Positions 31,729-48,819 of a stretch of 64,000 nt of DNA are shown in pieces. How positions within the stretch are numbered: the first letter of the stretch is position 1; the number at the start of each line of letters is the position of its first letter. The notes beneath the pieces were generated by a model. That model did not search any database and was not told the DNA's origin. It saw only the letters and a list, made by a program, of their open reading frames with translations. The stretch lies in IMG/VR virus record IMGVR_UViG_3300017991_000072, positions 1 through 64,000 of that record. The stretch is one strand, 5' to 3'. Source of the DNA: a virus. The position numbers were made by a program, and so were the translations under genes.

Positions 31729-34700
31729 TTAGATGTCATCCCCGAAGACTATGATCTGGTCTATTTCAATGGCGTCCCCAATGGTTGGGTCTTGGTTCTG
31801 GAACCTTATTCCAAAATTGGCGTTATTGTCACAGGCTCCGCCTGAATGGGTGGAGATGTTGAAGACGTGGGGTCCTGTCCACAGCGTTGGGCTTTGGAAG
31901 ACCGTTCCCCTGGTGGTGTAGGTGGACCCGTTGGTGGTGTAGAGAAGCGTGACATCCGCGTTGTCATCCGTAGTAGCCCAGAAGGAGACCCTGATGTTGT
32001 CCTTCCCCACTGTGGAGATGGGCATGGTGATATGGTGGTTAGCGCCTCCGTTCAGGACCACATAGCCCTTTCCAGTGAAGTCCGTGAAGCCGTAGCCCGG
32101 CTTCTGGTACACAGAGTAGCCTTCATCAGGGTTGAAGACCCAGGCTTTCCATTCAGCCCCTACGTGGGCCGTGGACCATTCATTGTGAGCCGTGTATACA
32201 TCGTAAGGAAAGCCGGGATCCGAGTCAGACGATGACCAAGGTGGGATCTCCACTGTGGGCTGACGGTAGTCCTCCCAGTCTTCGTAGAACAGGATACTGT
32301 CAGAGTCAGAGCGCATAGGATAGCCGTCACAGGCCACCAGTTGGATGTGGTCAACGTAGGACTGGCCTGAAGACACTGTTCCATCAGCCAGTTCAAACCT
32401 GATCAATAGCCGCGTGTTATGGCAGAAAGGACCCACGCCACACCAGCGCGTGTTCCCATCAGATATAGGGGGTGGCTCTTCAGCCCATTCATGAGCGCCC
32501 ACCAGGTTCATGGACACGTAGGTCCACGTGGACCCAATGTAGGGAGACTCCCATACTTGACTCTCTGTGGAAATGTTGTGGACCAGCCAGTTGTCCCCAT
32601 CGTTGGGGGAAACCTTGACCGTCAGGTAGCTAGGGCCGGAGTCTCCAACTGTGTGCCAGTTCTTGTACCAGAACCGGATGACAGGTTCATAGCGTCCCCT
32701 CATGTCCAGATGAACCGTGTGGTCCAGCCAGACCGCGTCATCAAAGGCGAACTTGTGGATCCGGCCTTCATAATTGCTCCCGTCCCTCCCATAGTCCGCC
32801 ACGGAGACTTCCGTGGGATCGTCAGCCGTCCAAGGAGGACTCTGGTCTGTCCAGTTCAGTCCATCTTCAAAACTTTCCGTGAACCTGACAAAGCCCGTAC
32901 AGGCCGTAGGCGTTGGGGTTGGCGTTGGCGTGTTCGTTGGCGTATCCGTTGGCGTGTTCGTTGGCGTGAAGGTTGGGGTATTGGTAGGCGTGTTCGTGGG
33001 TGTGTTCGTGGGGGTGGACGTGGGCGTAGGCGTTGGCGTGAACGTGGGGAGCGTGGGGTCATAACAGCCTATCAGCTTCACGTCATCTATGAAGACACAG
33101 GAGGAACTGTTGGTGGTGGGCTTGTCTATCCAGACCTTGAACGTCATGTCATGCTGGTGGGAGTAGACACTGTTGTCCAGGTGGTGTTCACTGTAGCCCC
33201 AAAAATTGTTCCCCGCGTGGCCAAACCCAAAGCTATCCAAAGTCTCCCAGGGACCCGTGGGACCAGGGGCCACCTGGATGTTCCCCTTGGCCGCCTGAAC
33301 TGTGATGGACGCCTTGGTCCAGTAGGAGATGACCAGGTCAACCTGGGACTGGGTGTTGTGGGTGTAGGTGACGTATTTGGCCCCCGTCCCCGTTCCAACT
33401 CCAACCCGTCCTTCACTGTCAGAGTCATCACGCCCGTAGTTCCCTACTTCATACCATGCGTCCTGAACATTCTGATACCAGTTGACCGTCCCTGGGACCG
33501 TGTTCAGTTGGTCAAAGTCACTTTCCAGTTCAAAGTCCTCTTCATAGAGAATTGGACAGGTGGTGGGCGTGGCCGTTGGCGTAGCCGTGGGAGTCAGCGT
33601 GGGCGTGTTCGTAGGAATAGGCGTGGGCGTTGGGGAACACTGGTAGGGTCTACACTTATACAGGTTCCACTGTTTGGCTTCGTTCTGGCGTTCATAGGCT
33701 ATCCATTCCTGGGCCGGGTCCCAGGTCAGGTAGGTGTGGTCATAGGGAGTGATGGTGACCACCTGGCCGCCTGTTCCCGGGGAAGACATGGCCTGGTCAA
33801 CGTCAATGACGAAGACTTGGAAGACTCCCGCGTTGGTCTGTCTCTGACAGGCTATTAACTGACCGTCAGGAGACCACAGGGGCCTGTAGTGGTGATATTG
33901 GCCCCTTGTTATGGAGTAGTCCTCCGCCGGGAAAGGCCCTGTCAGTAGGTCCAAGACACAGATCTGGAAGTAGCCGTCTTCGTCCCTCTTGGCGTATGCC
34001 AGCCCAGAATGTGGTCCCCAGTCAAGGTCTATTCTGTCTCCAGGGGAGGCCGTCAGCGGATCCTCCACAGCCATCCCCACGCCCGCCTTGGGATCCGTCA
34101 GGTCAGCCCTGTAGACGTTGAAATTCAGATCAATCCCGTCCTGTTTGATGTAGGCCGCTGTGTTATCATCTGGGCTGAAGCAAGGGAACCCGCGCCAGTT
34201 GGAGTAGTCCGTGACGTTCCTGAACCCTGGCCCCGCCTGGTATAACATGATCTGCCAATGGCCTGATCCCCGCTCTGGCTCCCTTCTACACATCAGCCAT
34301 AAGTTATCAGAAGAGTATTTGACCTGACCGTAGTCTATGGTGTCATCCCCAATCCCAAACCACATCTGGCCAAGACCCGCCACGCCTGTGAACGCCAGCT
34401 TGGTCCTCCCGGTGGTGTTGTTCATGACCTCCGCTATCCCCGCCATGGGTGGTCCTCCAAAGGACGCCCTGGGCCTGAAATGGCTGTAGTCCGCGTTGGC
34501 CGTGACAGGATAGTTCCGCTCCTCCGCCAGGTTCCAGGCTCCTGTCTGGAAGCCGTAGGTGGGGTCCAGGTAGCTGTGAAAGATCCAGTCCCCCGCTGGA
34601 GCCCAGTGTGGATGTCTATGGGTAGACGCTGACTTCTTGGCGCTGATCCTGATGTTGTCCACGTAGAAGGGAGAATTCATCCCAGGGACAGAGTCAGACT

Positions 34701-36192
34701 GGGACCTGAACCTGATGACCAGATCGTTCTGGTTATCACAGGCCGCTGGAAGCGTCTTGGTTTCGTTCTTCCACTCCATGGGGGTGGAGATCTCCATTCC
34801 GTCCATGAAGTCATGTTGAACCCACGGACCTCCTGGCCCGTCCACAGAGTAGTCCAGGTAGCCCTTGGTGTAGGGAGGAAAGATGTCTGTCCCCGTCCAG
34901 CGCCAAGAGACCGTCACGTCCTTCATGGACTGGGTGTTCAGTTGGATGTAGGCGTATTCCACAGCGCCTTCCAGGGAGTCAATCAGCCCTTCATAGGTAC
35001 TGTCCGCCGCGCCGTAGTCCGCCACTGTGACCTTGGCCTCCGTGGACTCCGTCCAGGCCGGGTCCTGGGAGTCCCAGTCCTGGCCGTCTTCAAAGTCTTC
35101 ATAGACCAGGTCCACCAGGTCAGGAACCGTGATCAGGATTTCAGGACACACCTGGGGAAGAGGGGTTGGCGTGGCCGTAGGCGTGGCCGTGGGGACCACG
35201 GGGGTAGGCGTGTTCGTTGGGCCTGGAATGGGCGTGGCCGTGGCTATGGGCCTGACACCTGGGGGTGGGTCCGTCTCTGGGTCAAAGTAGAGCCGGAGCG
35301 CGTAGCGTCCAAGGTAGGCCCCTGGGTCAGGATCCTCTGGCCCCTCCCAGGCTTCTCCATCTTGCCACTTCAGCCAGCCGTAGCCTCCTTCCCCCCAACC
35401 TAGCCCCCAGGAATTCTTGATCTTGAACGCTGATATACTGTCATCATAGCCCACAATGGCTACCGCGTGGGTCCCCAGATATTCTCCCCAAGCGTATTCA
35501 TAGACGCCCCCCGTGTAGTAGATGATGTCTTCATAGATGACCAGCGTGGCCTCCACGGGACCTCTGAAGACCGCCGCCTTGATGGCCTCCACGTTGACGG
35601 TTCCGTAGGATAACCAGGACCATTGATTGACCTTCCAGACTCTATCTTCCCAGTCTTCACACCGGTCAAAACAGTTGTTATCCACGCCAGAGTAGCGGAG
35701 ACAGGCGTCATCTGGGACGCCCGTGTTCTTGAATAACTGGGCCGCCGCTGAAATAGACATCCCTATTTCACAGTCTCCGCCTCCACAGGAGAAGACGAAC
35801 TGTTCAGACAGATCTATGGAGTAGTCCTGGAAGCCCGTGACGATCCTGACCACAGCTTCATAGACCGCCACCTGGCTGAAGGCCGAACAGGCCCCACAGC
35901 TTCCCTGTTGTTTGACGGAAGTCATCCACGGGGACCAGTCCCAGTAGGGAGGAAGAAGGGAGAAGGCCGTGGCTGGCGGATCGTCTCCGGCTGACGTGTC
36001 ATGGGGTGGTTCCGACGCCGGGAACATGGACTTCAGTTGGGCCGTTGACTTCTCTGACAGAGATGTGTGGCCCGCTGACCAGTTCAAGCCCTTGTCCTGG
36101 ATCTCCTGTTGGATCGTGGTCATCTTGACCGCGTCCCCCAGAGCCCACACAGTCACCAAACACATCCACGTCCACAGGATGGACTTCTTCAT
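31729..36192 (-). CDS. Secreted papain-family (C1A) cysteine peptidase with TolB-like propeller and beta-sandwich modules
   Basis: Signal peptide; [36 protein letters not shown]; PD40-like P.WSPDG repeats; Pro-Thr linkers. Confidence 0.9.
32905..33057. repeat. Coding tandem repeats of 6/12 bp (PT/PTNT linker)
   Basis: Repeated GGCGTGTTCGTT-type units; shorter linkers at about 33565-33632 and 35165-35245. Confidence 0.85.
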
Positions 36193-37162: not shown

Positions 37163-37284
37163 CCTGAAAAAAAGTTCTCCCTGGGTCATTTTTTCTTCAT
37201 TTTTCTCTTGACAAATGGACGGGGATGGTTTAGACTATAGCCATGATGAACGAAGAAACAAACCCCAAACCCCAGGAGGCCAAG
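37163..37284 (+). promoter_or_regulatory. Promoter module 1
   Basis: T-rich tract, TTGACA(37208)-17-TAGACT, ATG 37243, shared leader plus SD. Confidence 0.85.
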
Positions 37285-37536
37285 ATGATCACCCTGACAG
37301 ACGAACAGATAGCCGTAGTGGCGGAAGCGGACAGCGTTCATGACTACGCCTGGTCCTACATCACCATCAGGAAACAGACCGCGTCCTTCCAGCGGGCCTT
37401 CTACCTGGTGGAGACGATGGTTCACAAGGCTGAACACATGGAACTGGCGGAGGACCAGGTGTCAGGGCTCCAGGTGGCCACGGAATGGCTGAAACATGAG
37501 ATCAAGAACGCGGGCCACCCAGTAGCCGGACTGTAG
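37243..37536 (+). CDS. Hypothetical early protein (second start 37285)
   Basis: Promoter module, two in-frame starts. Confidence 0.7.
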   Translation: MMNEETNPKPQEAKMITLTDEQIAVVAEADSVHDYAWSYITIRKQTASFQRAFYLVETMVHKAEHMELAEDQVSGLQVATEWLKHEIKNAGHPVAGL

Positions 37537-37595
37537 AACCCCACGGGCTCCCTGGGGATCACCCAGGGAGCCCAGAACCCCAGAAGGAGGACCCC

Positions 37596-37787
37596 ATGAT
37601 ACGGACGAAGAAAGCCAAGAAGGTTCTGACGAAGAAGGAACAGCGCCACCTGACAGAGTCCAACATACACACCATGGCCGCCATGGAGCGCCAGGTGGCC
37701 TTCCTGAAGACCTACGAAGGGAACCCCACCATCTATCCCTGTTGGGAGTGTAGGGCCATAGCCCGGAAGCTTGGTCTGATGGACTGA
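37596..37787 (+). CDS. Hypothetical protein (CWEC motif)
   Basis: Hairpin, leader and AGGAGG SD. Confidence 0.7.
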   Translation: MIRTKKAKKVLTKKEQRHLTESNIHTMAAMERQVAFLKTYEGNPTIYPCWECRAIARKLGLMD

Positions 37788-37802
37788 CGCCCAGGACCCC
37801 CG

Positions 37803-37931
37803 TGACCCCTGGAGAAAAAAATTCTCCAGGGGTCATTTTTTCTTCATTTTTCTCTTGACTTTTCTGGCTCCCTGGGTTACAATAAGATCATGGAAACACA
37901 GAAAACACCCCAAACCCCCAAGGAGGAGACG
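37803..37931 (+). promoter_or_regulatory. Terminator-promoter module 2
   Basis: TGACCCCTGGAGAA/TTCTCCAGGGGTCA stem, T tract, TTGACT(37855)-17-TACAAT. Confidence 0.9.
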
Positions 37932-38324
37932 ATGAACTGGACCAAAGAAATCAGCCAAGAGGCCGCTGACAAGGTGAAGAAGGCTGGCTACGTGGACCCC
38001 ACAGCCAACCATCACCTGATCTCTGAAGCCGCCGCTGAAGCCCACACGATCCTGGGCCAGGAGATCTTCCTGGCGAAGGACCACGCCTGTGAAGTCAGCG
38101 TCCAGATCCCCAAGACGATCACGGATGAATTCCAGGCCACCTATGACGCCTACAAGCTGATCATGATGGAGATGGAAGCCATCCACCCGGCCAACAAACC
38201 AGAACTGACGCCCCAAGGCTATGACCGCCTGATGGCTGGCCTTCAGGAAAAGGCCGCGCCCCTTCGTTCCAAGCTTTACTCCCTGGAGATGGTCCTGGTG
38301 TCCATCGTCCAGGCCCAGATCTGA
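37890..38324 (+). CDS. Hypothetical early protein (second start 37932)
   Basis: Module 2. Confidence 0.7.
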   Translation: METQKTPQTPKEETMNWTKEISQEAADKVKKAGYVDPTANHHLISEAAAEAHTILGQEIFLAKDHACEVSVQIPKTITDEFQATYDAYKLIMMEMEAIHPANKPELTPQGYDRLMAGLQEKAAPLRSKLYSLEMVLVSIVQAQI

Positions 38325-38391
38325 CGAACCACGGGGGAGGGACCACGGGGGTCCCTCCCCTTCCCCCAACCCCACAGAGGAGGACAAGAAG

Positions 38392-38826
38392 ATGAAAGCC
38401 ACCAAGGACCAGATCAGAGGAATAGTAGGAGTCTTCCAGGACATCCTGGCCAAGGCGGAAGACAAGCTGAACACCAAGGAGATGGAGATGACAGAGCCCT
38501 ACGCCCACTACACTCCCGCCAAGGACGGAGGGACCTACAGGGCTGTCTGTCTGAATGACCTTCCCAGTGAAGCCTTCCAGGCCATGGACTCCGCCACGGA
38601 GGCCGTCTCCCGCGCCAAGATGGTCATCAGGGAAGGACTCCGCTTCTGGGAATTGGGTCAGATCTCTGATGAAGACCTGGTCTTCAAGGCCGCCCAGGCC
38701 AACGTCAACCTGGCCATGGAGGCCGTGGACAAGGCCCTGGAAGCCCCCAACCCCAGGCCCAAGACCAGGCCCAGGCCCATCAAGGCCAGGTTTGGGGAGA
38801 CCAGGCCAGCGTTCCCCGTGTCATAG
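38392..38826 (+). CDS. Hypothetical protein
   Basis: Hairpin, leader and SD. Confidence 0.7.
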   Translation: MKATKDQIRGIVGVFQDILAKAEDKLNTKEMEMTEPYAHYTPAKDGGTYRAVCLNDLPSEAFQAMDSATEAVSRAKMVIREGLRFWELGQISDEDLVFKAAQANVNLAMEAVDKALEAPNPRPKTRPRPIKARFGETRPAFPVS

Positions 38827-38835
38827 TTGACACAG

Positions 38836-38972
38836 CCCCCTGGTGAAAAAAAATTCGCCAGGGGGTCTTTTTTCTTCACTTTTCTCTTGACAAATGGGGG
38901 ACCATGGTTTATAATAGAGCCATGATGAAGGAAGGAAACAAACCCCAAACCCCCCAAAAGGAGGAGGACCTG
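38836..38972 (+). promoter_or_regulatory. Terminator-promoter module 3
   Basis: Stem with a G-U pair, TTGACA(38887)-17-TATAAT. Confidence 0.9.
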
Positions 38973-39383
38973 ATGATGACCCTTCAAGAAGCTACCGCTG
39001 GACTGATCGCTGGAACCGTGACCACGGATGACCTGAAGGTCCAAGGGTTCACGGCTGATGAACTGATCGCTGTGGTGGAGGCCATCCCGCCGTTCACAGG
39101 CTGTCCCTGTTGTTCGGATGAAGAGCCCGGCGCTGACTACGCGGACTTCAACATGTCCCTGTCCCGTCAGTTGGCCTTGGCTGACGTGAAGGTCTGTGGG
39201 TCCTGTGGAGCCATCCACGGAACCGTGGAGACCTGGGAAGCGGCCCACATGGTCTACCACCCCACGATGGTGGCCAAGGCCACGGGGGAGGAGATCTACG
39301 TGGACCTGACGATCCGTTCAGAGAATGAACGGTTCCATGGCTGGATGGACTCCGCCACCAAGAACCTGACCCAGGTTGGCTAG
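38922..39383 (+). CDS. Hypothetical Zn-binding protein (CPCC..CGSC; second start 38973)
   Basis: Module 3. Confidence 0.7.
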   Translation: MMKEGNKPQTPQKEEDLMMTLQEATAGLIAGTVTTDDLKVQGFTADELIAVVEAIPPFTGCPCCSDEEPGADYADFNMSLSRQLALADVKVCGSCGAIHGTVETWEAAHMVYHPTMVAKATGEEIYVDLTIRSENERFHGWMDSATKNLTQVG

Positions 39384-39457
39384 GACCTGGGAGGAAGCCA
39401 GGGAGGGACCCGTGGGTCCCTCCCTTCTTCGTTCAACCCCAAACCCAGGAGGAGACG

Positions 39458-39664
39458 ATGACCAGAGAAGAGGCCCAACGGATGGACCCAGAGGAGGCCA
39501 AGCTGAAGGCCAAGAGACTGGCCCAGGAAGCTGATGAACTGATCTCCAAGATGGAACTGGCCCACCCCCATTCCCAACGCTACACTGAACTGTGGAACGA
39601 ACTGACAGCCGTGGAACAGGAACAGCTAGTTCTGACCTGGGCTCCAGGCTACGGAGCCTGGTGA
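39458..39664 (+). CDS. Hypothetical protein
   Basis: Hairpin, leader and SD. Confidence 0.7.
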   Translation: MTREEAQRMDPEEAKLKAKRLAQEADELISKMELAHPHSQRYTELWNELTAVEQEQLVLTWAPGYGAW

Positions 39665-39722
39665 CGGAATAGAGCCCAGGCCCTACCCCTGGCGAACGAT
39701 CCAGGGGAGGGACCTGGGACGG

Positions 39723-39755
39723 GAGCCCCGGCGTTCAGACCGGGGCTCTTTTTTT
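39723..39755 (+). terminator. Intrinsic terminator
   Basis: GAGCCCCGG..CCGGGGCTC followed by T7. Confidence 0.8.
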
Positions 39756-39859
39756 GTCTGGATCCCCTGGCCTATGCTCCGCCTCCGCACCGTCCCGGAT
39801 GTGGTATTATCCCACCACAATGTCAAGAGAAGAGTGAAAAAAATTTCGTCTGGTGTCAA

Positions 39860-40001
39860 GATTTCTTCATTTTTCTCTTGACTTTTAGGATTGACCTGGG
39901 GTATAATAGGGCCACAGTCAAGATAGTTGACTGGTTGAATTCGGATCTTTGACAACTGAATAACGGACACAGAAACCCCCAAACCCCAAGGAGGGAAACC
40001 C
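39860..40001 (+). promoter_or_regulatory. Promoter module 4 with hairpin and rrn-type boxA in the leader
   Basis: TTGACT(39878)-18-TATAAT; hairpin 39915-39933; GATCTTTGACAACTGAATA at 39944-39962. Confidence 0.75.
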
Positions 40002-40241
40002 ATGGACGTGTTCTCTGTTCTGATCATCGTGGCTGTGGTTCTGACCAAGGTGGAGGCCCTGGAGGACGCCCTGGAGGCTTCTGAAGCGGACTTCTTCCCC
40101 GCCCAGGTCCTTGTGGTCCTGGTGGCCAGGGACGCCCTGGTGGGAGCCCTGGCGGGCTTCCTGGAGACGGGAACGGGGCTCCAGGATCTCCTGGACGCGG
40201 CCCTGGACCTGGATGACGCCCTGGTCAAGCTGGCGAAGTAG
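40002..40241 (+). CDS. Hypothetical Leu/Ala-rich protein
   Basis: Leader and GGAGG SD. Confidence 0.6.
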   Translation: MDVFSVLIIVAVVLTKVEALEDALEASEADFFPAQVLVVLVARDALVGALAGFLETGTGLQDLLDAALDLDDALVKLAK

Positions 40242-40246
40242 AAACA

Positions 40247-40380
40247 GACCCCCAGAGAAAAAAATTCTCTGGGGGTCATTTTTTCTTCATTTTTCCCTTG
40301 ACTTTTAGGAATGGGTGGTTTATAATAGGGTCATGATGAACGAAGGAAACAAACCCCAAACCCCCAAGAAGGAGGAAACC
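40247..40380 (+). promoter_or_regulatory. Terminator-promoter module 5
   Basis: GACCCCCAGAGAA/TTCTCTGGGGGTC; TTGACT(40298)-17-TATAAT. Confidence 0.9.
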
Positions 40381-40638
40381 ATGAACCAGATGACAACGAA
40401 GAAGAACGCGGGAAGAGACATGGTCCGGAAGGTGAAGGCGGAACAGATGTCCTTTGTGACGGAGGACCAGTTGGCCGTTATCGCGGAGGACGATGAAACC
40501 AGGATGACCCCCATCCTTGTCCGCTGTGGGAATGGACGCTTCACGTGTCCCGCCCAGAACGCGGCCTGGTTCATTGACATCATCACCAAGGAAGGGACGG
40601 ACTACGTCAGGGACGCCTCCATCTACTCCAGCTACTAG
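40333..40638 (+). CDS. Hypothetical early protein (second start 40381)
   Basis: Module 5. Confidence 0.7.
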   Translation: MMNEGNKPQTPKKEETMNQMTTKKNAGRDMVRKVKAEQMSFVTEDQLAVIAEDDETRMTPILVRCGNGRFTCPAQNAAWFIDIITKEGTDYVRDASIYSSY

Positions 40639-40652
40639 CCTGAACCCCTCCA

Positions 40653-40786
40653 GCCCCCCAGAGAAAAAAATTCTCTGGGGGGCCTTTTTTCTTCACTTTT
40701 CTCTTGACTTTCTTGACGGGGTGGGCTATAATAAGATCATGGAAACAGCGAACAAACCCCAAACCCCCAAACCCCAGGAGGACAGA
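40653..40786 (+). promoter_or_regulatory. Terminator-promoter module 6
   Basis: Same stem; TTGACT(40704)-17-TATAAT. Confidence 0.9.
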
Positions 40787-41191
40787 ATGTCAGTCACACA
40801 GTTCAGCGCGGAAGCCGTTTCCCAGATGGCCCACAGCATAGCCGCCCACGCCCGTCTTGATGAAGAGTTGGCGGAGATCATCCTGGAGTCCAAGGCGGCC
40901 CACCACGCTGGCCGCGTGGAGTTCAACCTGGACACGGATGACGTTTCCTTCAAGCTGGTCCACTACATGAGGCTGTCCAACCTGGTGGCCTACTCCATCC
41001 AATACCAGGAGCCCATGGTTCCCGTCTACACCATTGATGACTACTACGGGGAACCCCTGGTGGCCAAGGAGCTGGCGGAGGAAATTGACCACTGGATCTA
41101 CAACGTCCAGACCAACGCGGGGACCGCCCTGGTGGACCCGCTCTGGTTTGAACTGTTCCAGGCTGTCAGGGACCACCTGGCCGCGAAGTAG
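40739..41191 (+). CDS. Hypothetical early protein (second start 40787)
   Basis: Module 6. Confidence 0.7.
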   Translation: METANKPQTPKPQEDRMSVTQFSAEAVSQMAHSIAAHARLDEELAEIILESKAAHHAGRVEFNLDTDDVSFKLVHYMRLSNLVAYSIQYQEPMVPVYTIDDYYGEPLVAKELAEEIDHWIYNVQTNAGTALVDPLWFELFQAVRDHLAAK

Positions 41192-41204
41192 CCCACGGCC
41201 TCCA

Positions 41205-41332
41205 GACCCCCAGAGAAAAAAATTCTCTGGGGGTCATTTTTTCTTCATTTTTCTCTTGACTTTTCCCCGGGGATGGGTTACAATAAGATCATGGAAACAG
41301 GAAATCAACCCCAAACCCCGAAGGAGCCCAAG
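41205..41332 (+). promoter_or_regulatory. Terminator-promoter module 7
   Basis: Same stem; TTGACT(41256)-17-TACAAT. Confidence 0.9.
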
Positions 41333-41563
41333 ATGAAGATGAACCCCAACGGATCAGTCAGTTTCAGCTATGAAGAGATCGTGGCGGCGGCGGAAGAGAC
41401 CAAGAAGGCGGAAGCGGCCCGCGCCAACGCGCCCATGATGGCCGTCAGCTATGAAACCCCCGTAGGGACCTTCAAGGACTGGATCAAGGCGGCGGAGCGC
41501 GTGGAGGCTTTGGACATGGACCCCGTGGAGGTCATCAAGGTAGTCAGAACCCCTATCAGCTAA
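41291..41563 (+). CDS. Hypothetical early protein (second start 41333)
   Basis: Module 7. Confidence 0.7.
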   Translation: METGNQPQTPKEPKMKMNPNGSVSFSYEEIVAAAEETKKAEAARANAPMMAVSYETPVGTFKDWIKAAERVEALDMDPVEVIKVVRTPIS

Positions 41564-41630
41564 GGACAGGAACCACGCCCCCCCAGGATCCCCTGGGGGG
41601 CCAACCCCAACCCCAACGAAGGAGGACACG

Positions 41631-42029
41631 ATGAACAGACAAGCCAAGATCCCCCAGGAGATGGCCACCTACCTGGTGGACGCGGAGGACAAAGGCTGGA
41701 CCGGTGGCCAGGTGACCAGGTGGGTCCGGAACTGGATGAAGGACCTAGTCTGGGATGACAAGGACCCCCTGGGGGAGTCCGTGGCCGTGACCGTCCCCTG
41801 TTCCCTGGTGGACCAATACGGGAAGCTGATGGCCAAGGAGGACGAAGTCAGGACCTTGATGGAGACCAGAGCCCAGACCCTTGGCCTGGTGTCCTGTGAC
41901 CCCAGGTCTGAAGAGTACAGGGAGACCAGGAGGAAACACCTGAACCTAGTCAACGCCCTGGACATGGTCAGGGAGTCCAGGAGGAACCTGGAAGACGCCA
42001 TGACCTGGGTCCTGTTGGCCCAACTGTAG
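41631..42029 (+). CDS. Hypothetical protein
   Basis: Hairpin, leader and SD. Confidence 0.7.
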   Translation: MNRQAKIPQEMATYLVDAEDKGWTGGQVTRWVRNWMKDLVWDDKDPLGESVAVTVPCSLVDQYGKLMAKEDEVRTLMETRAQTLGLVSCDPRSEEYRETRRKHLNLVNALDMVRESRRNLEDAMTWVLLAQL

Positions 42030-42080
42030 ACGAACCCAACGCGGCCCCCTGGGGAGACCTGGGGGGCCAAGGAGGACCCC

Positions 42081-42386
42081 ATGGAAGGACAAGAACCCAA
42101 GATGGTCTCCGTCATGGTGGCGGAGAAGCTTCTACAGGATTATGACACGGCCTTGATGGGAGCCAGGAACATGGAGGGACGCCTATTGAACGCTGAACAG
42201 TGTCTTCTCCAGTCCGTCCTGGACTGTGACCAGGAAGCCTATGAAGAGGCCCTGGCCCAGAGGGACAGGGTCCAGGCTTCTCTGGACCTGGCCAAGAACC
42301 AGGCGGCGGCCCTGTCCGTCACGATAGCCAAGAAGGCCCTTCAAGACTGGATGACCCCAGGGACTCCAGTCTTCCCAGAGGATTGA
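42081..42386 (+). CDS. Hypothetical coiled-coil protein
   Basis: Hairpin and AAGGAGG SD. Confidence 0.7.
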   Translation: MEGQEPKMVSVMVAEKLLQDYDTALMGARNMEGRLLNAEQCLLQSVLDCDQEAYEEALAQRDRVQASLDLAKNQAAALSVTIAKKALQDWMTPGTPVFPED

Positions 42387-42387
42387 A

Positions 42388-42446
42388 CCACGGGTCCTCC
42401 CGTGGGTTTGGGGTGGGGCTCCCCCAGGGGTGGGGGAGCCCCTTTC
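42388..42446 (+). ncRNA. 3'-end anti-leader element plus terminator
   Basis: GTCCTCCCGTGGGTTTGGGGT (antisense to shared leader), then GGGGCTCCCCCA/TGGGGGAGCCCC stem and TTT. Confidence 0.55.
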
Positions 42447-42448
42447 TA

Positions 42449-42477
42449 TTGACTTCAGGCGGACCATGGTCTACACT
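42449..42477 (+). promoter_or_regulatory. sigma70 promoter for sRNA-1
   Basis: TTGACT-17-TACACT. Confidence 0.7.
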
Positions 42478-42483
42478 GAAGCC

Positions 42484-42565
42484 TGATCCACAGGGAACGG
42501 CGGGGCTTCCCCGTCCTCCTTGGGGTTTGGGGTAGGGGTCCAGGAGGGGTCCTGGACCCCTCTTT
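42484..42565 (+). ncRNA. Putative anti-leader sRNA-1
   Basis: Own promoter and terminator, no ORF; 42513-42533 is the exact reverse complement of ACCCCAAACCCCAAGGAGGAC. Confidence 0.65.
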
Positions 42566-42615
42566 ATATTGTGGTTCTTCTTGAACAGCTCCCCCACATG
42601 TGGTATGGTGGAACC

Positions 42616-42705
42616 TGCTAGGGCTGACTTGGTGTCCGTACCAGCGCCGGGTCACTCTGTTTCCTCCTTTGGGCTCCCCACGCGCCACGGGGAGCCCTTC
42701 CCTTC
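42616..42705 (+). ncRNA. Putative anti-SD sRNA-2
   Basis: TTGAAC(42581)-17-TATGGT promoter, 10-bp stem with three G-U pairs, GTTTCCTCCTTTGGG, terminator-like stem 42671-42697. Confidence 0.5.
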
Positions 42706-42707
42706 TA

Positions 42708-42723
42708 TGTTCCACGTGAAACC
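42708..42723. promoter_or_regulatory. parS-like site
   Basis: TGTTCCACGTGAAACC, 15/16 match to TGTTNCACGTGAAACA; intergenic. Confidence 0.55.
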
Positions 42724-42863
42724 CTGACTCCCTGGACCCCCGGGCCATGCTCCGGCCGGAGACCGTCCCGGATGTGGTATTCATCCACCACAACGTCAAG
42801 TCCCCACTTGACACGCCCCCCTTCCTCCTCCCCCCTGGTTATGCTCCCCCCAGGAAATCCGGG

Positions 42864-42911
42864 ACACCACATGTGGTATACCCACGGCCACGGACCCCCT
42901 ACATTTTGTGG
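42864..42911. promoter_or_regulatory. Tandem NrdR-box-like operator pair (32 bp apart)
   Basis: ACACCACATGTGGTAT and CCCCTACATTTTGTGG. Confidence 0.5.
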
Positions 42912-42919
42912 TGTCATAT

Positions 42920-43029
42920 AGCGAATTTTTCTACACTGAACCCTTGACAACAGGGGGTCCCCTGGTGTATATTAGGGGTAGATAGTGAGAATGAAACGGA
43001 CCCCAGAACCCCAAACCAAGGAGGACAGG
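42920..43029 (+). promoter_or_regulatory. Promoter module 8 (divergent copy)
   Basis: TTGACA(42944)-18-TATATT with TG; leader and SD. Confidence 0.75.
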
Positions 43030-43416
43030 ATGAACGCAAGAACCAACGATGACTTCAGGAAGGAAGGAACCAGGAAGGCCACGCTGGCGTTCCTTTCCGC
43101 CCTGACAGAACAGGAGGAAAGCGGAGAACCCCCGGCCATGTTCATGATCTGTCAACAGAAGAACCCCATCACGGGACGGAGGAATGAAGTCAGGTTGACG
43201 GCCGGTGTTCAGGCCATGGGAGCCATAGCGGCCGGTCACGTCCTGAAAGCCGTTCATGACTTTGACACCTTCACAGAGGATAATGACCCCTACGGGGAAC
43301 ATGACTTTGGGATCGTCAGGATGGAAGGGGAAACCCTGAACTGGAAGATTGATGACTACCAGGGCTATGATGGGATTGAATTGGTCCTGACCATCATGAC
43401 GGCCATGGAATACTAG
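42991..43416 (+). CDS. DUF3768-like protein (second start 43030)
   Basis: FDTFTEDNDPYGEHDFG, WKIDDY, VLTIMTAMEY signature. Confidence 0.8.
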   Translation: MKRTPEPQTKEDRMNARTNDDFRKEGTRKATLAFLSALTEQEESGEPPAMFMICQQKNPITGRRNEVRLTAGVQAMGAIAAGHVLKAVHDFDTFTEDNDPYGEHDFGIVRMEGETLNWKIDDYQGYDGIELVLTIMTAMEY

Positions 43417-43477
43417 AAACCCCAGGGAGCCCGGCCACGGCCGGGCTCCCACCACCCCCCAAACCAAGGAGGACAGA

Positions 43478-43741
43478 ATGGACCCCATCACGAACCCAAG
43501 ACCCACCACCCACCAATGGAAGGAAGGGGACAGGGTAGCCTTTTCTAAAGCCTTCCTCCGCAACACTGGCCAGTGTGACTATGAAACGGCCAGAGGCCGG
43601 GGGACCATCATCAGCGTGGCCCCCGTGGGGGACCTGACCATAGCGTCTATCAGATGGGACGGGATAGGTCTGGTCACTAACGTCAACGTGTTGAACCTGT
43701 CCCTGGTCACCAGGGACGGGGTAGTTCAGGACAGGGACTAG
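43478..43741 (+). CDS. Small SH3-like beta-barrel hypothetical protein
   Basis: GDRVAFSK.FLR..RGTI..IRWD..NV..NL. Confidence 0.65.
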   Translation: MDPITNPRPTTHQWKEGDRVAFSKAFLRNTGQCDYETARGRGTIISVAPVGDLTIASIRWDGIGLVTNVNVLNLSLVTRDGVVQDRD

Positions 43742-43801
43742 GAAGTCACCAGGGAGCCCTGGCGCTGGCCGGGGCTCCCACCCCCACCCAAGGAGGACAG
43801 G

Positions 43802-44041
43802 ATGGATCTGGAACGCTACAGGGTCTTCACAGCCCAGAAATTCATGGCCATGACCACGGGGGAACGCCAGAGGACAAAGCCCACCATGATGTTCAGCCGG
43901 GAATACCTGGCCCTGGCCCTGGCGCTGGCCTCTGAAAAGGTCATCATCTATGACGCCCAGGAAGACCTGGCGTGGCATTGTGGGGACCTGGTCACGAAGG
44001 CGGGATGGTACGATGGGAGCGGACAGCTAGTCAACCCGTAG
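43802..44041 (+). CDS. Hypothetical protein
   Basis: Hairpin, leader and SD. Confidence 0.65.
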   Translation: MDLERYRVFTAQKFMAMTTGERQRTKPTMMFSREYLALALALASEKVIIYDAQEDLAWHCGDLVTKAGWYDGSGQLVNP

Positions 44042-44267
44042 CCCTTCACCGGGGACCTGGTGAAGGGGTCCCCTTGGTTAGCCGGTCCCGGGGAAACCCG
44101 GGGCCGGTCTTTTTATGCTCCCCTCTGGCCCCGTCCCGGATTGTGGTATACTGTATCCACAATGTCAAGCCCTGGCTTGACGGGCCGTCTGCTAATCCAC
44201 GAAAAGCCGGGACGGCCCCACATGTGGTAGGCCCCGTCCACCACCCCTATATTTTGTGGTGTCCGTG

Positions 44268-44382
44268 GGCGTCTTTTTCTTCACTTTTCTCTTGACAAAA
44301 GGGGAACGCCGGGCGTATAATAGACCTGTAAGCTGAACAAAGGGTTCAGCGAAACCCCAACCCCCAACCAAGGGAGGACAGA
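44268..44382 (+). promoter_or_regulatory. Promoter module 9
   Basis: TTGACA(44292)-18-TATAAT; 5' hairpin GCTGAAC/GTTCAGC in place of an upstream ATG. Confidence 0.85.
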
Positions 44383-44580
44383 ATGTTGGTAGCGTGTTAC
44401 AAGACCAAGAAGGCTTTGAAGGAAGCCGTGGGACAGGCTCTTCTATATGAAGAGACTTCCTTGTTCGGGGAGGAATACCGCCCGGACGGGACGTTCCCAG
44501 TGGTAGGCCCCGGGGCCTATGAGCGTAAATGGTACGCGGAAGTTACCATGAAGGGAGGGAAGATCCACAAGGTCAAGTAG
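44383..44580 (+). CDS. Small phage hypothetical protein
   Basis: YKTKKALKEAVG..ETSLFGEEY..RKWYAEVTM pattern; leader and SD. Confidence 0.75.
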   Translation: MLVACYKTKKALKEAVGQALLYEETSLFGEEYRPDGTFPVVGPGAYERKWYAEVTMKGGKIHKVK

Positions 44581-44639
44581 GAACCTGAACCGGCCCGGGG
44601 CTCCGGCCCCGGGCCATTCTTCCAACCAAGGGAGGAACC

Positions 44640-44924
44640 ATGAACACACAAGAGACCCTAGAATTCACTGGACACCAGATGGCCCGGGCCAATACGGTCC
44701 TGTCAAGCCTTGACGGAGCTGGCCCTATGTCCGTCTGTAAAGCCGCCGCCGTGGCCCAGAAGGCCAACCAAATAGCGGAAAGCCTACCAGCCCTTGACAA
44801 GCTGGCCGGACACCTTGAAAGCCATCCTGATGACCCCGTGGCCCTTCTGGCCGTTCAAGCCTATACCGTGGCCGTGGGCGTCCACCTTGACCTTCTGGAA
44901 CTGACCCTTCAAATGACCCTATAG
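44640..44924 (+). CDS. Hypothetical protein
   Basis: Hairpin, leader and SD. Confidence 0.65.
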   Translation: MNTQETLEFTGHQMARANTVLSSLDGAGPMSVCKAAAVAQKANQIAESLPALDKLAGHLESHPDDPVALLAVQAYTVAVGVHLDLLELTLQMTL

Positions 44925-45185
44925 CCTCCCCCCAGGGGGGAGGAATTCCCCCTTGGTTGGCCCCGGTCCCTTCTGGGACCGGGGCCTTTCTTTTGTCAAC
45001 CCCAGACTTGACATAGTGGTGTGCAAATGTCATTTTCCGTCCCGGACGTTGACCGTTTCCCAGGGCTCCCAGAGCGGAGCGGAGCGGAGCGGGTCCCCGT
45101 AGGGGACCACGGCCCCCGTCCCATCCGGGACGGGGGCCGGGAACCGCATAGAGAGAAGAGACCGGAACCGGACCCGGCCGGACCC

Positions 45186-45311
45186 ACCTGAAAAAAAATT
45201 CGCGGGAGGACGTTTTTTCTTCACTTTTCCCTTGACTTTCGTTCTGGGATGGTTTAGAATAGGGGTGTAATGAGGAAACGAAACACACCCCAAACCCCGA
45301 AGGAGGCCAAG
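45186..45311 (+). promoter_or_regulatory. Promoter module 10
   Basis: TTGACT(45232)-17-TAGAAT. Confidence 0.85.
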
Positions 45312-46226
45312 ATGGCAACACAGAGCGGACAGGACAAGGTTTTCCAGATCTTCACAGACCAGATCATGGACATGTTGGAAGAGGGGACGGTCCCCTGGCG
45401 TCAACCTTGGAAGGGCGGGAAGATCCCCATGTCCTTCCAGACCAAGCGGCCCTACCGTGGGATGAACGTCTGGTTCCTGAACAGCGTGGCCATTCATCGC
45501 GGCTACACATCCAACTGGTGGGTGTCCCTGAAGTCAGTGAAGAAGGCCAAGGGCTGGATCAAGGACGATGAATTCAAGAAGTCAGTGACCGTGATCTTCT
45601 GTAGGCCCAAGCGGTACGAAGTGGAGACGGACGAAGTGGACGAACAGGGCCAGCCGGTCAAGGAAGAGCGGATGTCCTTCATCTACTTCTACCACACGGT
45701 ATGGAACATGGACCAGGTGGAAGGGATGACGGCCCCTGACGCGGACCAGGACGCGGAGGAGCGGACCCCCAACCAGATCCTTGAAGAGGCCCAGGCCATC
45801 ATTGACGGCTACCAGAACGGCCCAGAGATCAGCCACGGCGGGACCAGGGCTTTCTATCGTCCCTCTGATGACTCCGTGACGGTCCCAGAGATGGAACTGT
45901 TCCAGGACAGCGAGAACTACTACCACGTGATGTATCATGAACTGGCACACTCCACGGGTCACGGTTCCCGCCTTGGGCGGAAGGGAGTCATGGACCTGAC
46001 CATGTTTGGATCCCATGACTACTCCAAGGAGGAACTGGTGGCGGAGATGGGAGCGGGCTTCCTGGGAGCCCTGGTGGGACTGACCCCCAGGACCATTGAC
46101 AACACGGCGGCCTACATCCAGTCCTGGCTGAAGGCCCTGAACGATGACAAGCGGCTCCTGGTCTACGCGGCCAGCAAAGGCCAGGCGGCGGCGGAACACA
46201 TCCTGGGCGTGACCTGGGAAGGATAA
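45270..46226 (+). CDS. ardC: ArdC-like ssDNA-binding anti-restriction protein (DUF1738 plus zincin-like domain; second start 45312)
   Basis: PWRQPW, RPYRGMN, VWN.DQ.EG, AFYRPS.D, HELAHSTGH..RL.R, YSKEELVAE, AAYIQSWL. Confidence 0.9.
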   Translation: MRKRNTPQTPKEAKMATQSGQDKVFQIFTDQIMDMLEEGTVPWRQPWKGGKIPMSFQTKRPYRGMNVWFLNSVAIHRGYTSNWWVSLKSVKKAKGWIKDDEFKKSVTVIFCRPKRYEVETDEVDEQGQPVKEERMSFIYFYHTVWNMDQVEGMTAPDADQDAEERTPNQILEEAQAIIDGYQNGPEISHGGTRAFYRPSDDSVTVPEMELFQDSENYYHVMYHELAHSTGHGSRLGRKGVMDLTMFGSHDYSKEELVAEMGAGFLGALVGLTPRTIDNTAAYIQSWLKALNDDKRLLVYAASKGQAAAEHILGVTWEG

Positions 46227-46301
46227 CAGGGAGGAAGCCTGGGAGTCCCACAGTGGGGCTCCCAGGCCCTTCAAACCCCAAACCAGAAGGAGGACAGAAC
46301 G

Positions 46302-46775
46302 ATGGAACAGACAGACTACACAGCGGACAGAGAACTGGCGGTCAAGGCCCTGGAACAGATGGACTACATCCACCTGGAACGCGGACAGGTGGCGGCCCTG
46401 GTGGACACCTACCGGGTCATCACCACCCATAACCCTGGCGCGGTCCCAGGCCATGAAGAGGAACTAGGGACCCTGGCCGGGCTCCTGGTCATGAGCGTAG
46501 GAACTGGCGTCAAGCTGATCCCAGAGGACGGACCCCCCAACGTCCGGGTGGGAGTCCCCAGGCTCCTGGTGGAAGCCATCAAGGACATCAACATCCAGAG
46601 GGACAAACTGGCGGCCTACAAGGAGGAACACAAGGACGGAGGAGGACCAATAGACCCCAAGTCCATGGAAGTCCTGGAGGCCCAACAGGCTACCCACAGG
46701 GCGGCCCTTTCCACGGCCCTGGTCAACGTCATCATCACGGACTTGGCTGGAATGGCGGACGCTGGAAGCTACTAG
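46302..46775 (+). CDS. Hypothetical protein
   Basis: Hairpin, leader and SD; terminator at about 46793-46832. Confidence 0.7.
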   Translation: MEQTDYTADRELAVKALEQMDYIHLERGQVAALVDTYRVITTHNPGAVPGHEEELGTLAGLLVMSVGTGVKLIPEDGPPNVRVGVPRLLVEAIKDINIQRDKLAAYKEEHKDGGGPIDPKSMEVLEAQQATHRAALSTALVNVIITDLAGMADAGSY

Positions 46776-46916
46776 ACTGACCCTCCCCCACAGAGCCCCG
46801 GCCCGGTTCGTCCGGTCCGGGGCTCTTCTTTTATGCGGGCCGGGACTAGCGTCCCGGATATACGCCATTTCCCACGGTCCCCATCACGTGGTAGACTATG
46901 GATGAAAGGAGATCCC

Positions 46917-47219
46917 ATGACCTACACTCTATCCCAGGCGGGGACGGCCTACGCTGAAGCGGCGGCCACGTGGGCCAGGGCTATGGAAGCGGAGGAGGCG
47001 GTCAGACAAGAAGGCCCTGACCTGAAGGTTGACAAGTTCCTCCACGTGACGGCCTTGTCCACAGTGATCCGCCAGGCTATGAACGGCCTGTCCCAGGCTG
47101 TCATGATCTTCATCTGGCGAAACAACGAAGGGAACCACGCGGTCCTGGAAGCGGCCATGGCGGAGACTATCCGCGTGACGGCGGACGCCAACGCCCTTAT
47201 GGACTCCTACGGATACTGA
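46917..47219 (+). CDS. Hypothetical Ala-rich protein
   Basis: AAGGAG SD; TGG-TAGACT extended -10 upstream. Confidence 0.6.
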   Translation: MTYTLSQAGTAYAEAAATWARAMEAEEAVRQEGPDLKVDKFLHVTALSTVIRQAMNGLSQAVMIFIWRNNEGNHAVLEAAMAETIRVTADANALMDSYGY

Positions 47220-47365
47220 ACCCCCTGGACCCCTGGGCCACCAATGACTGTTTATTAACCCTGAACTGTCATTCTGTTGTTACCGGTTATCAGGCCCAGG
47301 GGTCTTTTCTTTCCCCCACGCGGGCGCGGGCGGGCGCGTGGGCGCGTATACGCGGGCGCGGGGCT

Positions 47366-47490
47366 CCTGAAAAAAGTTCTCCCAGGGCGTTTTTTTCTTC
47401 ACTTTTCTCTTGACATCCGTGGACGGGTCCCCTATAATAAGGACCATGGACACAGCGACAAACCCCAAACCCCAAACCACGGAGGACAAC
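47366..47490 (+). promoter_or_regulatory. Promoter module 11
   Basis: TTGACA(47410)-17-TATAAT. Confidence 0.85.
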
Positions 47491-47829
47491 ATGTCCACAC
47501 TGAACGCCCTTGGAACCCTTCTCTACAGCCTCCCCGTTCCCACCCGTCACGCCTACACCATCACCATCTGTGACCAATACCAGGACACAGAGCCTACCAC
47601 CTGTGTGGTCAACGCGGAGACCCAGGGCGCGGCCCTGGCCAAGGCTGTGGAGGTCTACTCCACAGAATTCTACGGCCACGCGGTCACCCTGGACCCCCAG
47701 GTCCTTCATGACGCTGTCACCGTCATCTTCCATCCTGACGGCGGCGTGAACCCCGTGGGGTTCTTCGCCAGTGACCCCCAACCCATCCGCCTTCAGCGCC
47801 TTGGGGACCCTGTCCCCTTGTCCGCGTAA
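47446..47829 (+). CDS. Hypothetical protein (second start 47491)
   Basis: Module 11. Confidence 0.65.
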   Translation: MDTATNPKPQTTEDNMSTLNALGTLLYSLPVPTRHAYTITICDQYQDTEPTTCVVNAETQGAALAKAVEVYSTEFYGHAVTLDPQVLHDAVTVIFHPDGGVNPVGFFASDPQPIRLQRLGDPVPLSA

Positions 47830-47895
47830 GCGGACCCCCTGGGGGGTGGGAATTCTCCCACCCCCCGGCTGGAACCCCAAACCCAGGAGGACATC

Positions 47896-48096
47896 ATGGA
47901 CCAAGTCAAGAAGAGCCTGACCAAGAAAGCCCTGAAGGCCAAGCTGAACCAAGCCAGGGAAGAGCTGACCTACCTGGAGGACTTCCTGGCGGGACCCTGT
48001 TGTGTGTCCCACGCGGAGATTGACGCGGCCGGGGATGACACCTACAGGCTTCAGAAGGAGATCAGGGAGCTGAAGGAGGCCCTGGCGGCCCTGTGA
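47896..48096 (+). CDS. Small coiled-coil protein
   Basis: Hairpin, leader and SD. Confidence 0.7.
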   Translation: MDQVKKSLTKKALKAKLNQAREELTYLEDFLAGPCCVSHAEIDAAGDDTYRLQKEIRELKEALAAL

Positions 48097-48111
48097 TCTT
48101 TTTTTCGTCAG

Positions 48112-48210
48112 GCGGCGTTTTTTCTTCACTTTTCTCTTGACAAAGCCTGAAGGATGGTTTACACTTACACCATGGACACAGACCGCAAACCCCAGACCCA
48201 GGAGGACACG
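48112..48210 (+). promoter_or_regulatory. Promoter module 12
   Basis: TTGACA(48137)-17-TACACT. Confidence 0.85.
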
Positions 48211-48819
48211 ATGAACGAAGATCACATCACCCAAGAGGCCACGCGGCGGCTGGAAGCCCTTCACCCCTACCTGACCAGGGAGATCAAGCTGGCTCCCCCG
48301 TCTCCCCCAGAGAAGACGGCTGAAGAGTACAGGGAAGAAGCGGCCCGTCACGCGGCGGAGCGCCTACGGTCCCAACAGGAGTCAGACACGGACGGGTTCC
48401 TGTCCCAGTGGGCCAGCGGCCTGAACAGTTCCCTGGCGTCCAGGCGGGCGGAGATCAAGGAGAACGGCGGGAACTGGGAGTTCTGGGGACTCTACCGTAG
48501 GGCGGACGGGAAGCGGATCAGGGCCAAGATGATAGACGGGAAGTATGGCCTCTGTTGGGCCATCTGTGACGAACATTCCACCTTCACGGGTCAGTTCTTC
48601 TCCGTGGACGGGACGGGCTCCAAGAGGACCAAGCTGTGGAAGGCTGGCCTGGAAGAGCGGCGTGAAATGGCCCCGGCTTGGGCCAAGATGGACGGGAAGG
48701 GAACGGGCCTGTCAGGTCAGGCTTGGGTGTCCACCTACAGGATAGACGGCGGCTACCCCTTGGACGCGGTCAACCTGGACTCCCCCGTGGAGGACCCTGA
48801 CCCCACGCCGGACCCATAG
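48172..48819 (+). CDS. Phage hypothetical protein (SDTDGFLSQWASG motif; second start 48211)
   Basis: Module 12. Confidence 0.7.
   Translation: MDTDRKPQTQEDTMNEDHITQEATRRLEALHPYLTREIKLAPPSPPEKTAEEYREEAARHAAERLRSQQESDTDGFLSQWASGLNSSLASRRAEIKENGGNWEFWGLYRRADGKRIRAKMIDGKYGLCWAICDEHSTFTGQFFSVDGTGSKRTKLWKAGLEERREMAPAWAKMDGKGTGLSGQAWVSTYRIDGGYPLDAVNLDSPVEDPDPTPDP

Follow-up and report, generated by a model that had tools for sequence, protein, structure and literature searches.

The mRNAs of lambda cI, transcribed from PRM, and of Tn1721 tetR are naturally leaderless, and the lambda holin S107/S105 is a gene with two in-frame starts. The nearest described case to the one reported here is the 5'-uAUG class of Escherichia coli, in which an upstream AUG (uAUG) stands at the 5' end of an mRNA that also carries a Shine-Dalgarno (SD)-led start. 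These 5'-uAUGs bind 70S ribosomes and are translated, and some of them affect or promote initiation downstream (Beck, Fleming and Janssen 2016, PMC4965119); the leaderless cI and tetR mRNAs serve as controls in that study. In T4-type phages, small orphan early genes are preceded by PeSL (promoter-early stem-loop) cassettes. These repeated intergenic units consist of a terminator with a G/C stem-loop, an AT-rich stretch, a strong promoter of sigma-70-like type, an SD and a start codon, and genes are shuffled by recombination at them (Arbiol et al. 2010, PMC2839356; Comeau et al. 2014, PMC4122927). Here we describe the early region of an uncultured phage contained in the virus record IMGVR_UViG_3300017991_000072, a single sequence of 99,864 bp with 57% G+C, whose first 64 kb (positions 1 to 64,000) form the window that was analysed. 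Repeated promoter cassettes in this region carry an ATG at or close to the predicted transcript start, and this upstream AUG invariably shares the frame of the SD-led AUG of the first gene.

The early region (37.2–48.2 kb, plus strand) contains 12 near-identical sigma-70-type promoter cassettes within 11 kb (Table 1). Each cassette opens with a G/C terminator hairpin that has an A-run loop and a T tail, followed by a T-rich UP stretch (TTCTTCAYTTTTCYC) and a TTGACw -35 box. A promoter spacer of 17 nucleotides (nt), or 18 nt in three cassettes, leads to a TAnnnT -10 box. The 3' part comprises a C/A-rich, almost U-free leader with the motif CCCCARACCC, and then GGAGG, 5 nt and ATG. The SD-led ATG opens a reading frame in every cassette (65–304 codons). 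A consensus promoter scan of the region returned 20 promoter-like sites, compared with 2.9 expected from shuffled sequence, and all 12 cassettes are included among them; no additional cassette was found in the rest of the genome.

An earlier note on this DNA, prepared from the letters alone, had reported an ATG between the -10 box and the leader in ten modules. A recount agrees: ten of the 12 cassettes have such an ATG, and those at 39878 and 44292 (named here by the first base of the -35 box) have none. Numbering from the first base past the -10 box, seven of the ATGs begin at base 7 and one at base 8, which reproduces the eight that the note had placed 6–7 nt past the box; the remaining two are found at base 10 (45270) and base 18 (42991). 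The ten distances to the SD-led ATG listed in the note were all obtained again (Table 1), and every one is a multiple of 3. Each upstream AUG is in the frame of the gene, and this frame is free of stops up to the gene, an observation that is uninformative by itself because the leader has almost no T. Translation from the upstream AUG would add a predicted tail of 13–17 residues in which P, Q, T, K, N and E are abundant, and this tail shows no conservation at the peptide level. The C-rich leader is read in different frames, as the note had also claimed, giving NPKPQ in the cassettes at 37208 and 47410 and KPQTP in the others, and whole-codon differences follow the initial M-E-T or M-M-N. An extra ATG is present in the promoter spacer (gATGGTTTA, just 5' of the -10 box) at 38904, 41273 and 48154 and at the equivalent position of other cassettes. 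This spacer ATG lies 18 nt upstream of the +1 ATG, is also in frame, and is the point at which ORF (open reading frame) finders begin the ORF; since its distance is fixed and the predicted transcript starts downstream of it, it is uninformative.

The cassettes are paralogues, so the ten in-frame cases of the window are not ten independent trials, and relatives were collected for the frame test for this reason. They were gathered with a pattern that lies entirely upstream of the transcript, and the choice of contigs could therefore not favour in-frame ATGs. The set consists of related metagenome contigs from one sample series, with nucleotide identities of 86–98% for L120 and L166, 92–97% for L130, ~82% for L231, ~77% for L180 and ~73% for L206 (which is viral contig L004). 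Together with the window they provide 31 unique cassettes, in which an ATG is found at base 7 in 20, at base 8 in one and at base 10 in three. The distances from these 24 near-terminal ATGs to the SD-led ATG are only 39, 42, 45, 48 or 51 nt. When every ATG from the predicted +1 to the SD-led ATG is considered, 32 of 32 are in frame, a count in which some tandem ATGATG pairs are not independent. Random frames in homologues, the outcome opposed to the claim that the upstream AUG is always in frame, were not seen in this set.

Further searches covered several collections. A scan of viral contigs with the leader-motif pattern was too unspecific, with single chance hits among the matches listed. 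The promoter 20-mer was found in only two related viral contigs, both of which end at the first cassette, and the same 20-mer pattern retrieved no relative of the phage from species genomes. Protein-based searches of viral contigs returned only distant ArdC homologues (27–37% identity), or nothing. A protein search added P0002, a further relative of the second gene at 61% identity, which is encoded on a 97-kb contig. An index of analysed windows contained no look-alike.

The frame test was carried further by cutting the spacer between the two ATGs at the common C-rich motif and comparing the two half-lengths modulo 3. The distance from the upstream ATG to the motif is 17, 18, 20 or 21 nt, and that from the motif to the SD-led ATG is 21, 22, 24, 27, 28, 30 or 31 nt. 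These values occur in 11 real combinations, each of which is either (0,0) or (2,1) modulo 3; a twelfth combination, (11,28) in L130, is an artefact of motif calling caused by a point change and is not counted among the 11. In other words, a change of 1 or 2 nt on the 5' side of the motif is always offset by a change of 2 or 1 nt on the 3' side. Fisher's exact test by class gave 0.0022 for the 6 versus 6 table, and removal of the artefact (6 versus 5) gave 1/462, the same value; by cassette, p = 7e-6. Given the background of internal genes, the chance that all length classes fit is ~1e-5. The same compensation is seen between orthologues. For the first gene the pair is (20,22) in the window versus (18,24) in L206, the third gene has (21,30) versus (20,28), and the gene for an ArdC-like protein has (18,24), (18,30) and (17,31). 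The insertions involved pair single-base changes with leader units of 7 and 8 nt, and a mutational bias towards indels of 3n was rejected on this ground as an account of the frame. Recombination inside the common leader is expected to yield out-of-frame chimeras, and none was present among the cassettes examined.

Leaders that lack an upstream ATG served as controls. In the six cassettes without any upstream ATG the leader lengths are 1, 1, 1, 0, 1 and 2 modulo 3, and the members of one orthologous pair without the ATG, 44292 and L180:3894, differ by 2 nt in leader length. The motif-to-ATG distances of 14 internal-gene leaders are spread 6/5/3 across the three residues modulo 3. Both groups are unconstrained, and a frame constraint is therefore confined to leaders that have the ATG.

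The transcript start was placed from promoter geometry. A search for RNA runs that contain the sequence listed none, and four runs consulted consisted of DNA contigs and yielded no start sites. With a 17-nt spacer and 6 nt past the -10 box, base 7 is the expected +1, and +1 on the A of the ATG is accordingly what the sequence predicts. The -1/+1 step is pyrimidine/purine in 28 of the 31 cassettes (CA in 20), and it is retained where the ATG is absent. The predicted RNA of the base-10 class has a leader of 3 nt (GUA or AGA) ahead of the AUG. All 24 near-terminal starts are ATG; upstream of them there is only the -10 box and a discriminator of 6–9 nt, with no SD. Leaderless initiation reportedly needs AUG, according to work on unleadered mRNAs from the Janssen laboratory. 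The first 45 nt of all cassettes with the ATG are unstructured, and their minimum free energy (MFE) does not fall below -4.1 kcal/mol. Seven cassettes have no near-terminal AUG; four of these have a stable hairpin (-10 to -14 kcal/mol) that starts at +2 to +5 (39914-39935 and 44332-44350 in the window, L180:3894 and L206:12801), and three (42944, L180:2524 and L206:10217) have neither feature. A 5' AUG and a 5' hairpin may be two alternative designs of the 5' end.

Frame selection on the upstream AUG is well supported by these sequence comparisons. Selection of this kind implies that decoding by ribosomes from the upstream AUG is frequent enough to have consequences, and leaderless-type initiation at a 5'-terminal AUG is its likely cause. 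In the mechanism we propose, the mRNA of an early cassette would begin, judging by the promoter geometry, at an AUG or within 1–3 nt of one, and this AUG would be recognised in the leaderless manner, by 70S binding and with no SD. Ribosomes would then run through the leader (39–51 nt, nearly U-free, with no stop in frame) and the SD into the gene. An out-of-frame copy would waste message and run over the SD-led start, and only in-frame copies would persist; the compensatory length changes are the pattern of a selection that would tolerate a 5' AUG only where it shares the frame of the SD-led AUG. Two forms of the first protein of each operon would consequently exist, one translated from the SD-led start and one with 13–17 more residues at the N-terminus. 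The sequence of this tail would be dictated by the RNA leader, not by peptide function. The leader also precedes internal genes, where it is untranslated, and the primary constraint on the leader therefore acts at the RNA level. Taken together, we consider it reasonably probable that the 5' AUG is read in the leaderless manner, that it yields a longer, in-frame protein from the first gene, and that selection holds the frame. The dual initiation proposed in the earlier note is upheld to this extent: the compensatory lengths in paralogues and orthologues and the unconstrained leaders without the ATG argue that frame, and not peptide, is kept and that the upstream AUG is a second start, while its placement at +1 is given by promoter geometry only. 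The retention of the +1 AUG, seen in roughly three quarters of the cassettes, could be due to extra ribosome recruitment, protection of the 5' end, a route of initiation insensitive to a small RNA (sRNA), or a constraint on the promoter or initial transcript.

Several points weigh against this proposal. The cassettes are paralogous and recombine, and the number of independent events is well below 24 (about 10 length-class changes and five events at the level of orthologues). Seven of the 31 cassettes work without a near-terminal AUG, which is therefore dispensable. For the second gene, the publicly annotated product is the short one, from the SD-led start. The ATG is embedded in a conserved block (CATGATGAA, GATCATGGAAACA, CCATGGACACA) that may be maintained at the DNA level, in which case translation could be a side effect and not the purpose. 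Finally, the single base-18 case (42991) could be due to chance; this ATG is not kept in the orthologous cassettes, which have none in L180 and one at base 7 in L206.

The alternative that survives best assigns the 5' AUG a role in ribosome loading or in protection of the 5' end. A 70S ribosome at the 5' end would feed the SD-led start from a standby position, or would shield the message from 5'-end-dependent RNases; elongation would then be a by-product, and the frame would keep that by-product harmless. Beck et al. propose both roles for the 5'-uAUGs of E. coli, namely standby loading at ptrB and protection by ribosome binding (PMC4965119). The presence of a 5' hairpin, the classic alternative 5' stabiliser, in four of the seven cassettes that have no AUG near the terminus, and the unstructured 5' ends of the AUG cassettes, point the same way, and a hairpin in place of the AUG fits a common role at the 5' end. 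Three cassettes have neither device, however, and the explanation overlaps with leaderless-type decoding, since the AUG must still be decoded for the frame to matter. We regard loading or protection as possible, although the greater part of our confidence lies elsewhere.

The earlier note had proposed that the upstream start could escape or displace an anti-leader sRNA, or could serve as a back-up under inhibition of canonical initiation, and a candidate for this sRNA is encoded in the window (Table 1). In that model the sRNA would block all SD-led starts, and the first cistron would still be made from the 5' AUG, or the ribosome would strip the sRNA from the leader. A duplex blocks initiation within a window of about five codons (Bouvier et al. 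2008, as reported in PMC7534054). The complementary core, made up of the motif and the SD, begins 17–21 nt past the 5' AUG in every cassette, which places it just beyond the five-codon blocking window and the region occupied by an initiating ribosome. Bypass of the sRNA from the 5' AUG is thus geometrically possible, and internal genes have the SD-led start only. The spacing of 17–21 nt could, however, follow equally from other needs, and the presence of the 5' AUG is not sorted by visible gene function: the gene for a DUF3768 protein has the AUG at base 7 in L206, at base 18 in the window, and none in L180. A purpose-built bypass is in our judgement unlikely. The same doubt applies to a two-channel design, in which one sRNA would shut the common leader of the whole early regulon and the first cistron of most operons would retain a leaderless 70S entry just outside the blocking range; this is conceivable, but we would not expect it. 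If it is true, one sRNA would split each operon into an insensitive first gene (or one from which the sRNA is stripped) and sensitive downstream genes. In an MFE fold of the candidate sRNA alone, the anti-leader segment is mostly paired in a 5' stem, ahead of the terminator hairpin. Access to this segment may require opening of the 5' stem.

It is much less probable that the upstream ATG is not translated at all and is simply part of a promoter, initial-transcript or DNA-site block that is copied with the cassette, the in-frame distances being inherited or coincidental. The cassettes are clearly paralogous and are shuffled as units, and the ATG occurs in palindromic contexts (CATG, CCATGG and TCATGA, with GATC adjacent). 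These facts are set against the eleven length combinations, which keep the frame through paired non-3n changes around the motif, against the orthologues, which behave likewise, and against the free variation of the leaders without the ATG. The palindromic words are neither enriched nor avoided genome-wide (CATG, 488 observed versus 558 expected; CCATGG, 90 versus 93; TCATGA, 52 versus 55), and restriction or methylation at a +1 CATG was rejected as the cause of the frame on this basis. Cassettes of the ATGGAAACA class have a GATC site whose last base is at -1 (aaGATCATGg), as at 37886-37889, 40735-40738 and 41287-41290 of the window, and the phage codes for an N6/N4 DNA methylase (L236:5513-7045).

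The weakest alternative, that the first cistron starts mainly or exclusively at the 5' AUG, that the SD-led AUG serves internal genes only and that the tail is the true N-terminus and possibly a common functional tag, can draw on the open frame from the 5' AUG in all cases and on a similar tail composition in both motif frames, yet is hardly credible given the optimal spacing of GGAGG, 5 nt and ATG in every cassette, the expression of orthologous genes through the SD-led start alone in cassettes without the ATG, the alignment of the ArdC N-domain profile from residue 9 of the short form, and the lack of conservation of the tail as a peptide.

Table 1 Promoter cassettes of the early region, each span beginning at the -35 box, and the candidate sRNA; base numbers count from the first base past the -10 box, and distances run from the upstream to the SD-led ATG.
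Feature	Span (strand)	-10 box	Predicted +1	Upstream ATG	SD-led ATG	Distance (nt)	Remarks
Cassette 1	37208..37287 (+)	TAGACT 37231-37236		37243 (5' ATG, base 7, tandem ATGATG)	37285	42	NPKPQ frame
Cassette 2	37855..37934 (+)	TACAAT 37878-37883		37890 (5' ATG, base 7)	37932	42	
Cassette 3	38887..38975 (+)	TATAAT 38910-38915		38922 (5' ATG, base 7, ATGATG)	38973	51	
Cassette 4	39878..40004 (+)		39914	none	40002		88-nt leader (not 3n); stable hairpin from +2
Cassette 5	40298..40383 (+)	40321-40326		40333 (5' ATG, base 7, ATGATG)	40381	48	
Cassette 6	40704..40789 (+)	40727-40732		40739 (5' ATG, base 7)	40787	48	
Cassette 7	41256..41335 (+)	41279-41284		41291 (5' ATG, base 7)	41333	42	
Cassette 8	42944..43032 (+)		42980	42991 (base 18, not 5'-terminal)	43030	39	variant UP region
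Cassette 9	44292..44385 (+)		44328	none	44383		5' hairpin from +5
Cassette 10	45232..45314 (+)		45267 (G)	45270 (base 10)	45312	42	ArdC-like gene; 3-nt leader
Cassette 11	47410..47493 (+)	47433-47438		47446 (base 8)	47491	45	NPKPQ frame
Cassette 12	48137..48213 (+)	TACACT 48160-48165		48172 (5' ATG, base 7)	48211	39	
Candidate anti-leader sRNA with promoter	42449..42568 (+)						~84 nt (42485-42568); segment CCUCCUUGGGGUUUGGGGU complementary to the common leader and SD

Structural genes, including that of the capsid protein, occupy 1–36 kb on the minus strand and are adjoined by a gene at 31729-36192 (minus) for a protein of 1487 residues with an N-terminal papain-family cysteine protease domain. 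The terminase matches a T4-type N-terminal domain and the portal is SPP1-like, neither of which fixes membership among the T4-type phages. Replication genes (PolA, DnaB-like and RecA) are located outside the window, further along the record. Two of the promoter-proximal genes have recognisable products, an ArdC-like anti-restriction protein with a zincin metallopeptidase domain (45312-46226) and a DUF3768 protein (43030-43416), and their position fits an early block of anti-defence genes. A megablast search of deposited phages gave no nucleotide match to the 12-kb region, and Rfam gave no match at gathering score in 36.9–49.0 kb. As clues to the host, tRNAs were looked for and none was found, and a terminase atlas look-up returned only 'viruses'. 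An exact 20-base word that spans the UP stretch and -35 box (TTCTTCAYTTTTCYCTTGAC) recurs in many genomes of Acidobacteriota, where it precedes conserved promoters (about 20 of 53 matches; species-genome matches L238-L290). It occurs eight times in one chromosome, that of a Terriglobia metagenome-assembled genome (L252, L260, L271, L273-L275, L282 and L289), and also in Terriglobus and Acidobacteriaceae (L240, L259, L278 and L290). This recurrence is a weak lead, pointing either to the host or to a widespread design of strong promoters.

The reading of 5'-terminal AUGs on SD-led mRNAs in nature, and its importance, are still argued mostly from E. coli reporters. The present phage lineage offers an evolutionary read-out of the same question, with about 30 cassettes in which the surviving 5' AUGs are all in frame and paired indels restore the frame, as expected if ribosomes start there. 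For annotation, the result is a warning that two N-termini are possible for a gene that comes first after a strong phage promoter. Because their sigma-70 promoters are near consensus, the cassettes would also be compact and portable test pieces for leaderless versus SD-led initiation and for the effect of an antisense sRNA on each.

Like the 5'-uAUG mRNAs of E. coli, the phage messages combine a 5'-terminal AUG, predicted here, with a normal leader, SD and start on one mRNA. The E. coli 5'-uAUGs open separate upstream ORFs of 5–18 codons, which either stop ahead of the gene or run into it in another frame, and they are scattered over single genes (PMC4965119). In contrast, the phage AUGs have no stop of their own, are always in frame and so specify an N-terminal extension, belong to about three quarters of the early promoters of the lineage, and are accompanied by compensatory indels. 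Leader-peptide or upstream-ORF attenuators differ in a similar way, as they consist of a short ORF with its own stop combined with a terminator or with occlusion of the start, whereas the phage frame has no stop and its leader is unstructured.

The predicted transcripts resemble leaderless mRNAs in that they start with AUG directly past a sigma-70 promoter and continue in an unstructured, A/C-rich sequence. Leaderless mRNAs have a single start, however, and in lambda cI the promoter decides whether the same AUG is leaderless or SD-led, whereas the phage cassettes have two AUGs 39–51 nt apart. Two in-frame starts in one ORF are shared with dual-start genes, such as the lambda holin S107/S105, and with the proteoforms detected by ribosome profiling with retapamulin (10.1101/520783). 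In the known cases the dual start is a property of a single gene, both starts are usually SD-dependent and the isoforms are functionally distinct; here the upstream start belongs to the cassette and is predicted to be SD-independent.

In composition the cassettes match the PeSL unit, with 12 units in 11 kb and terminator hairpins directly upstream. The gene at 37932-38324, which lies between near-identical cassettes, is only 53% identical to its counterpart at L120:3197-3592, compared with 86–98% in the surroundings; this difference indicates that a cassette-flanked gene was replaced, as occurs with PeSLs. The PeSL descriptions contain no in-frame +1 AUG, no common C-rich leader and no matching antisense sRNA.

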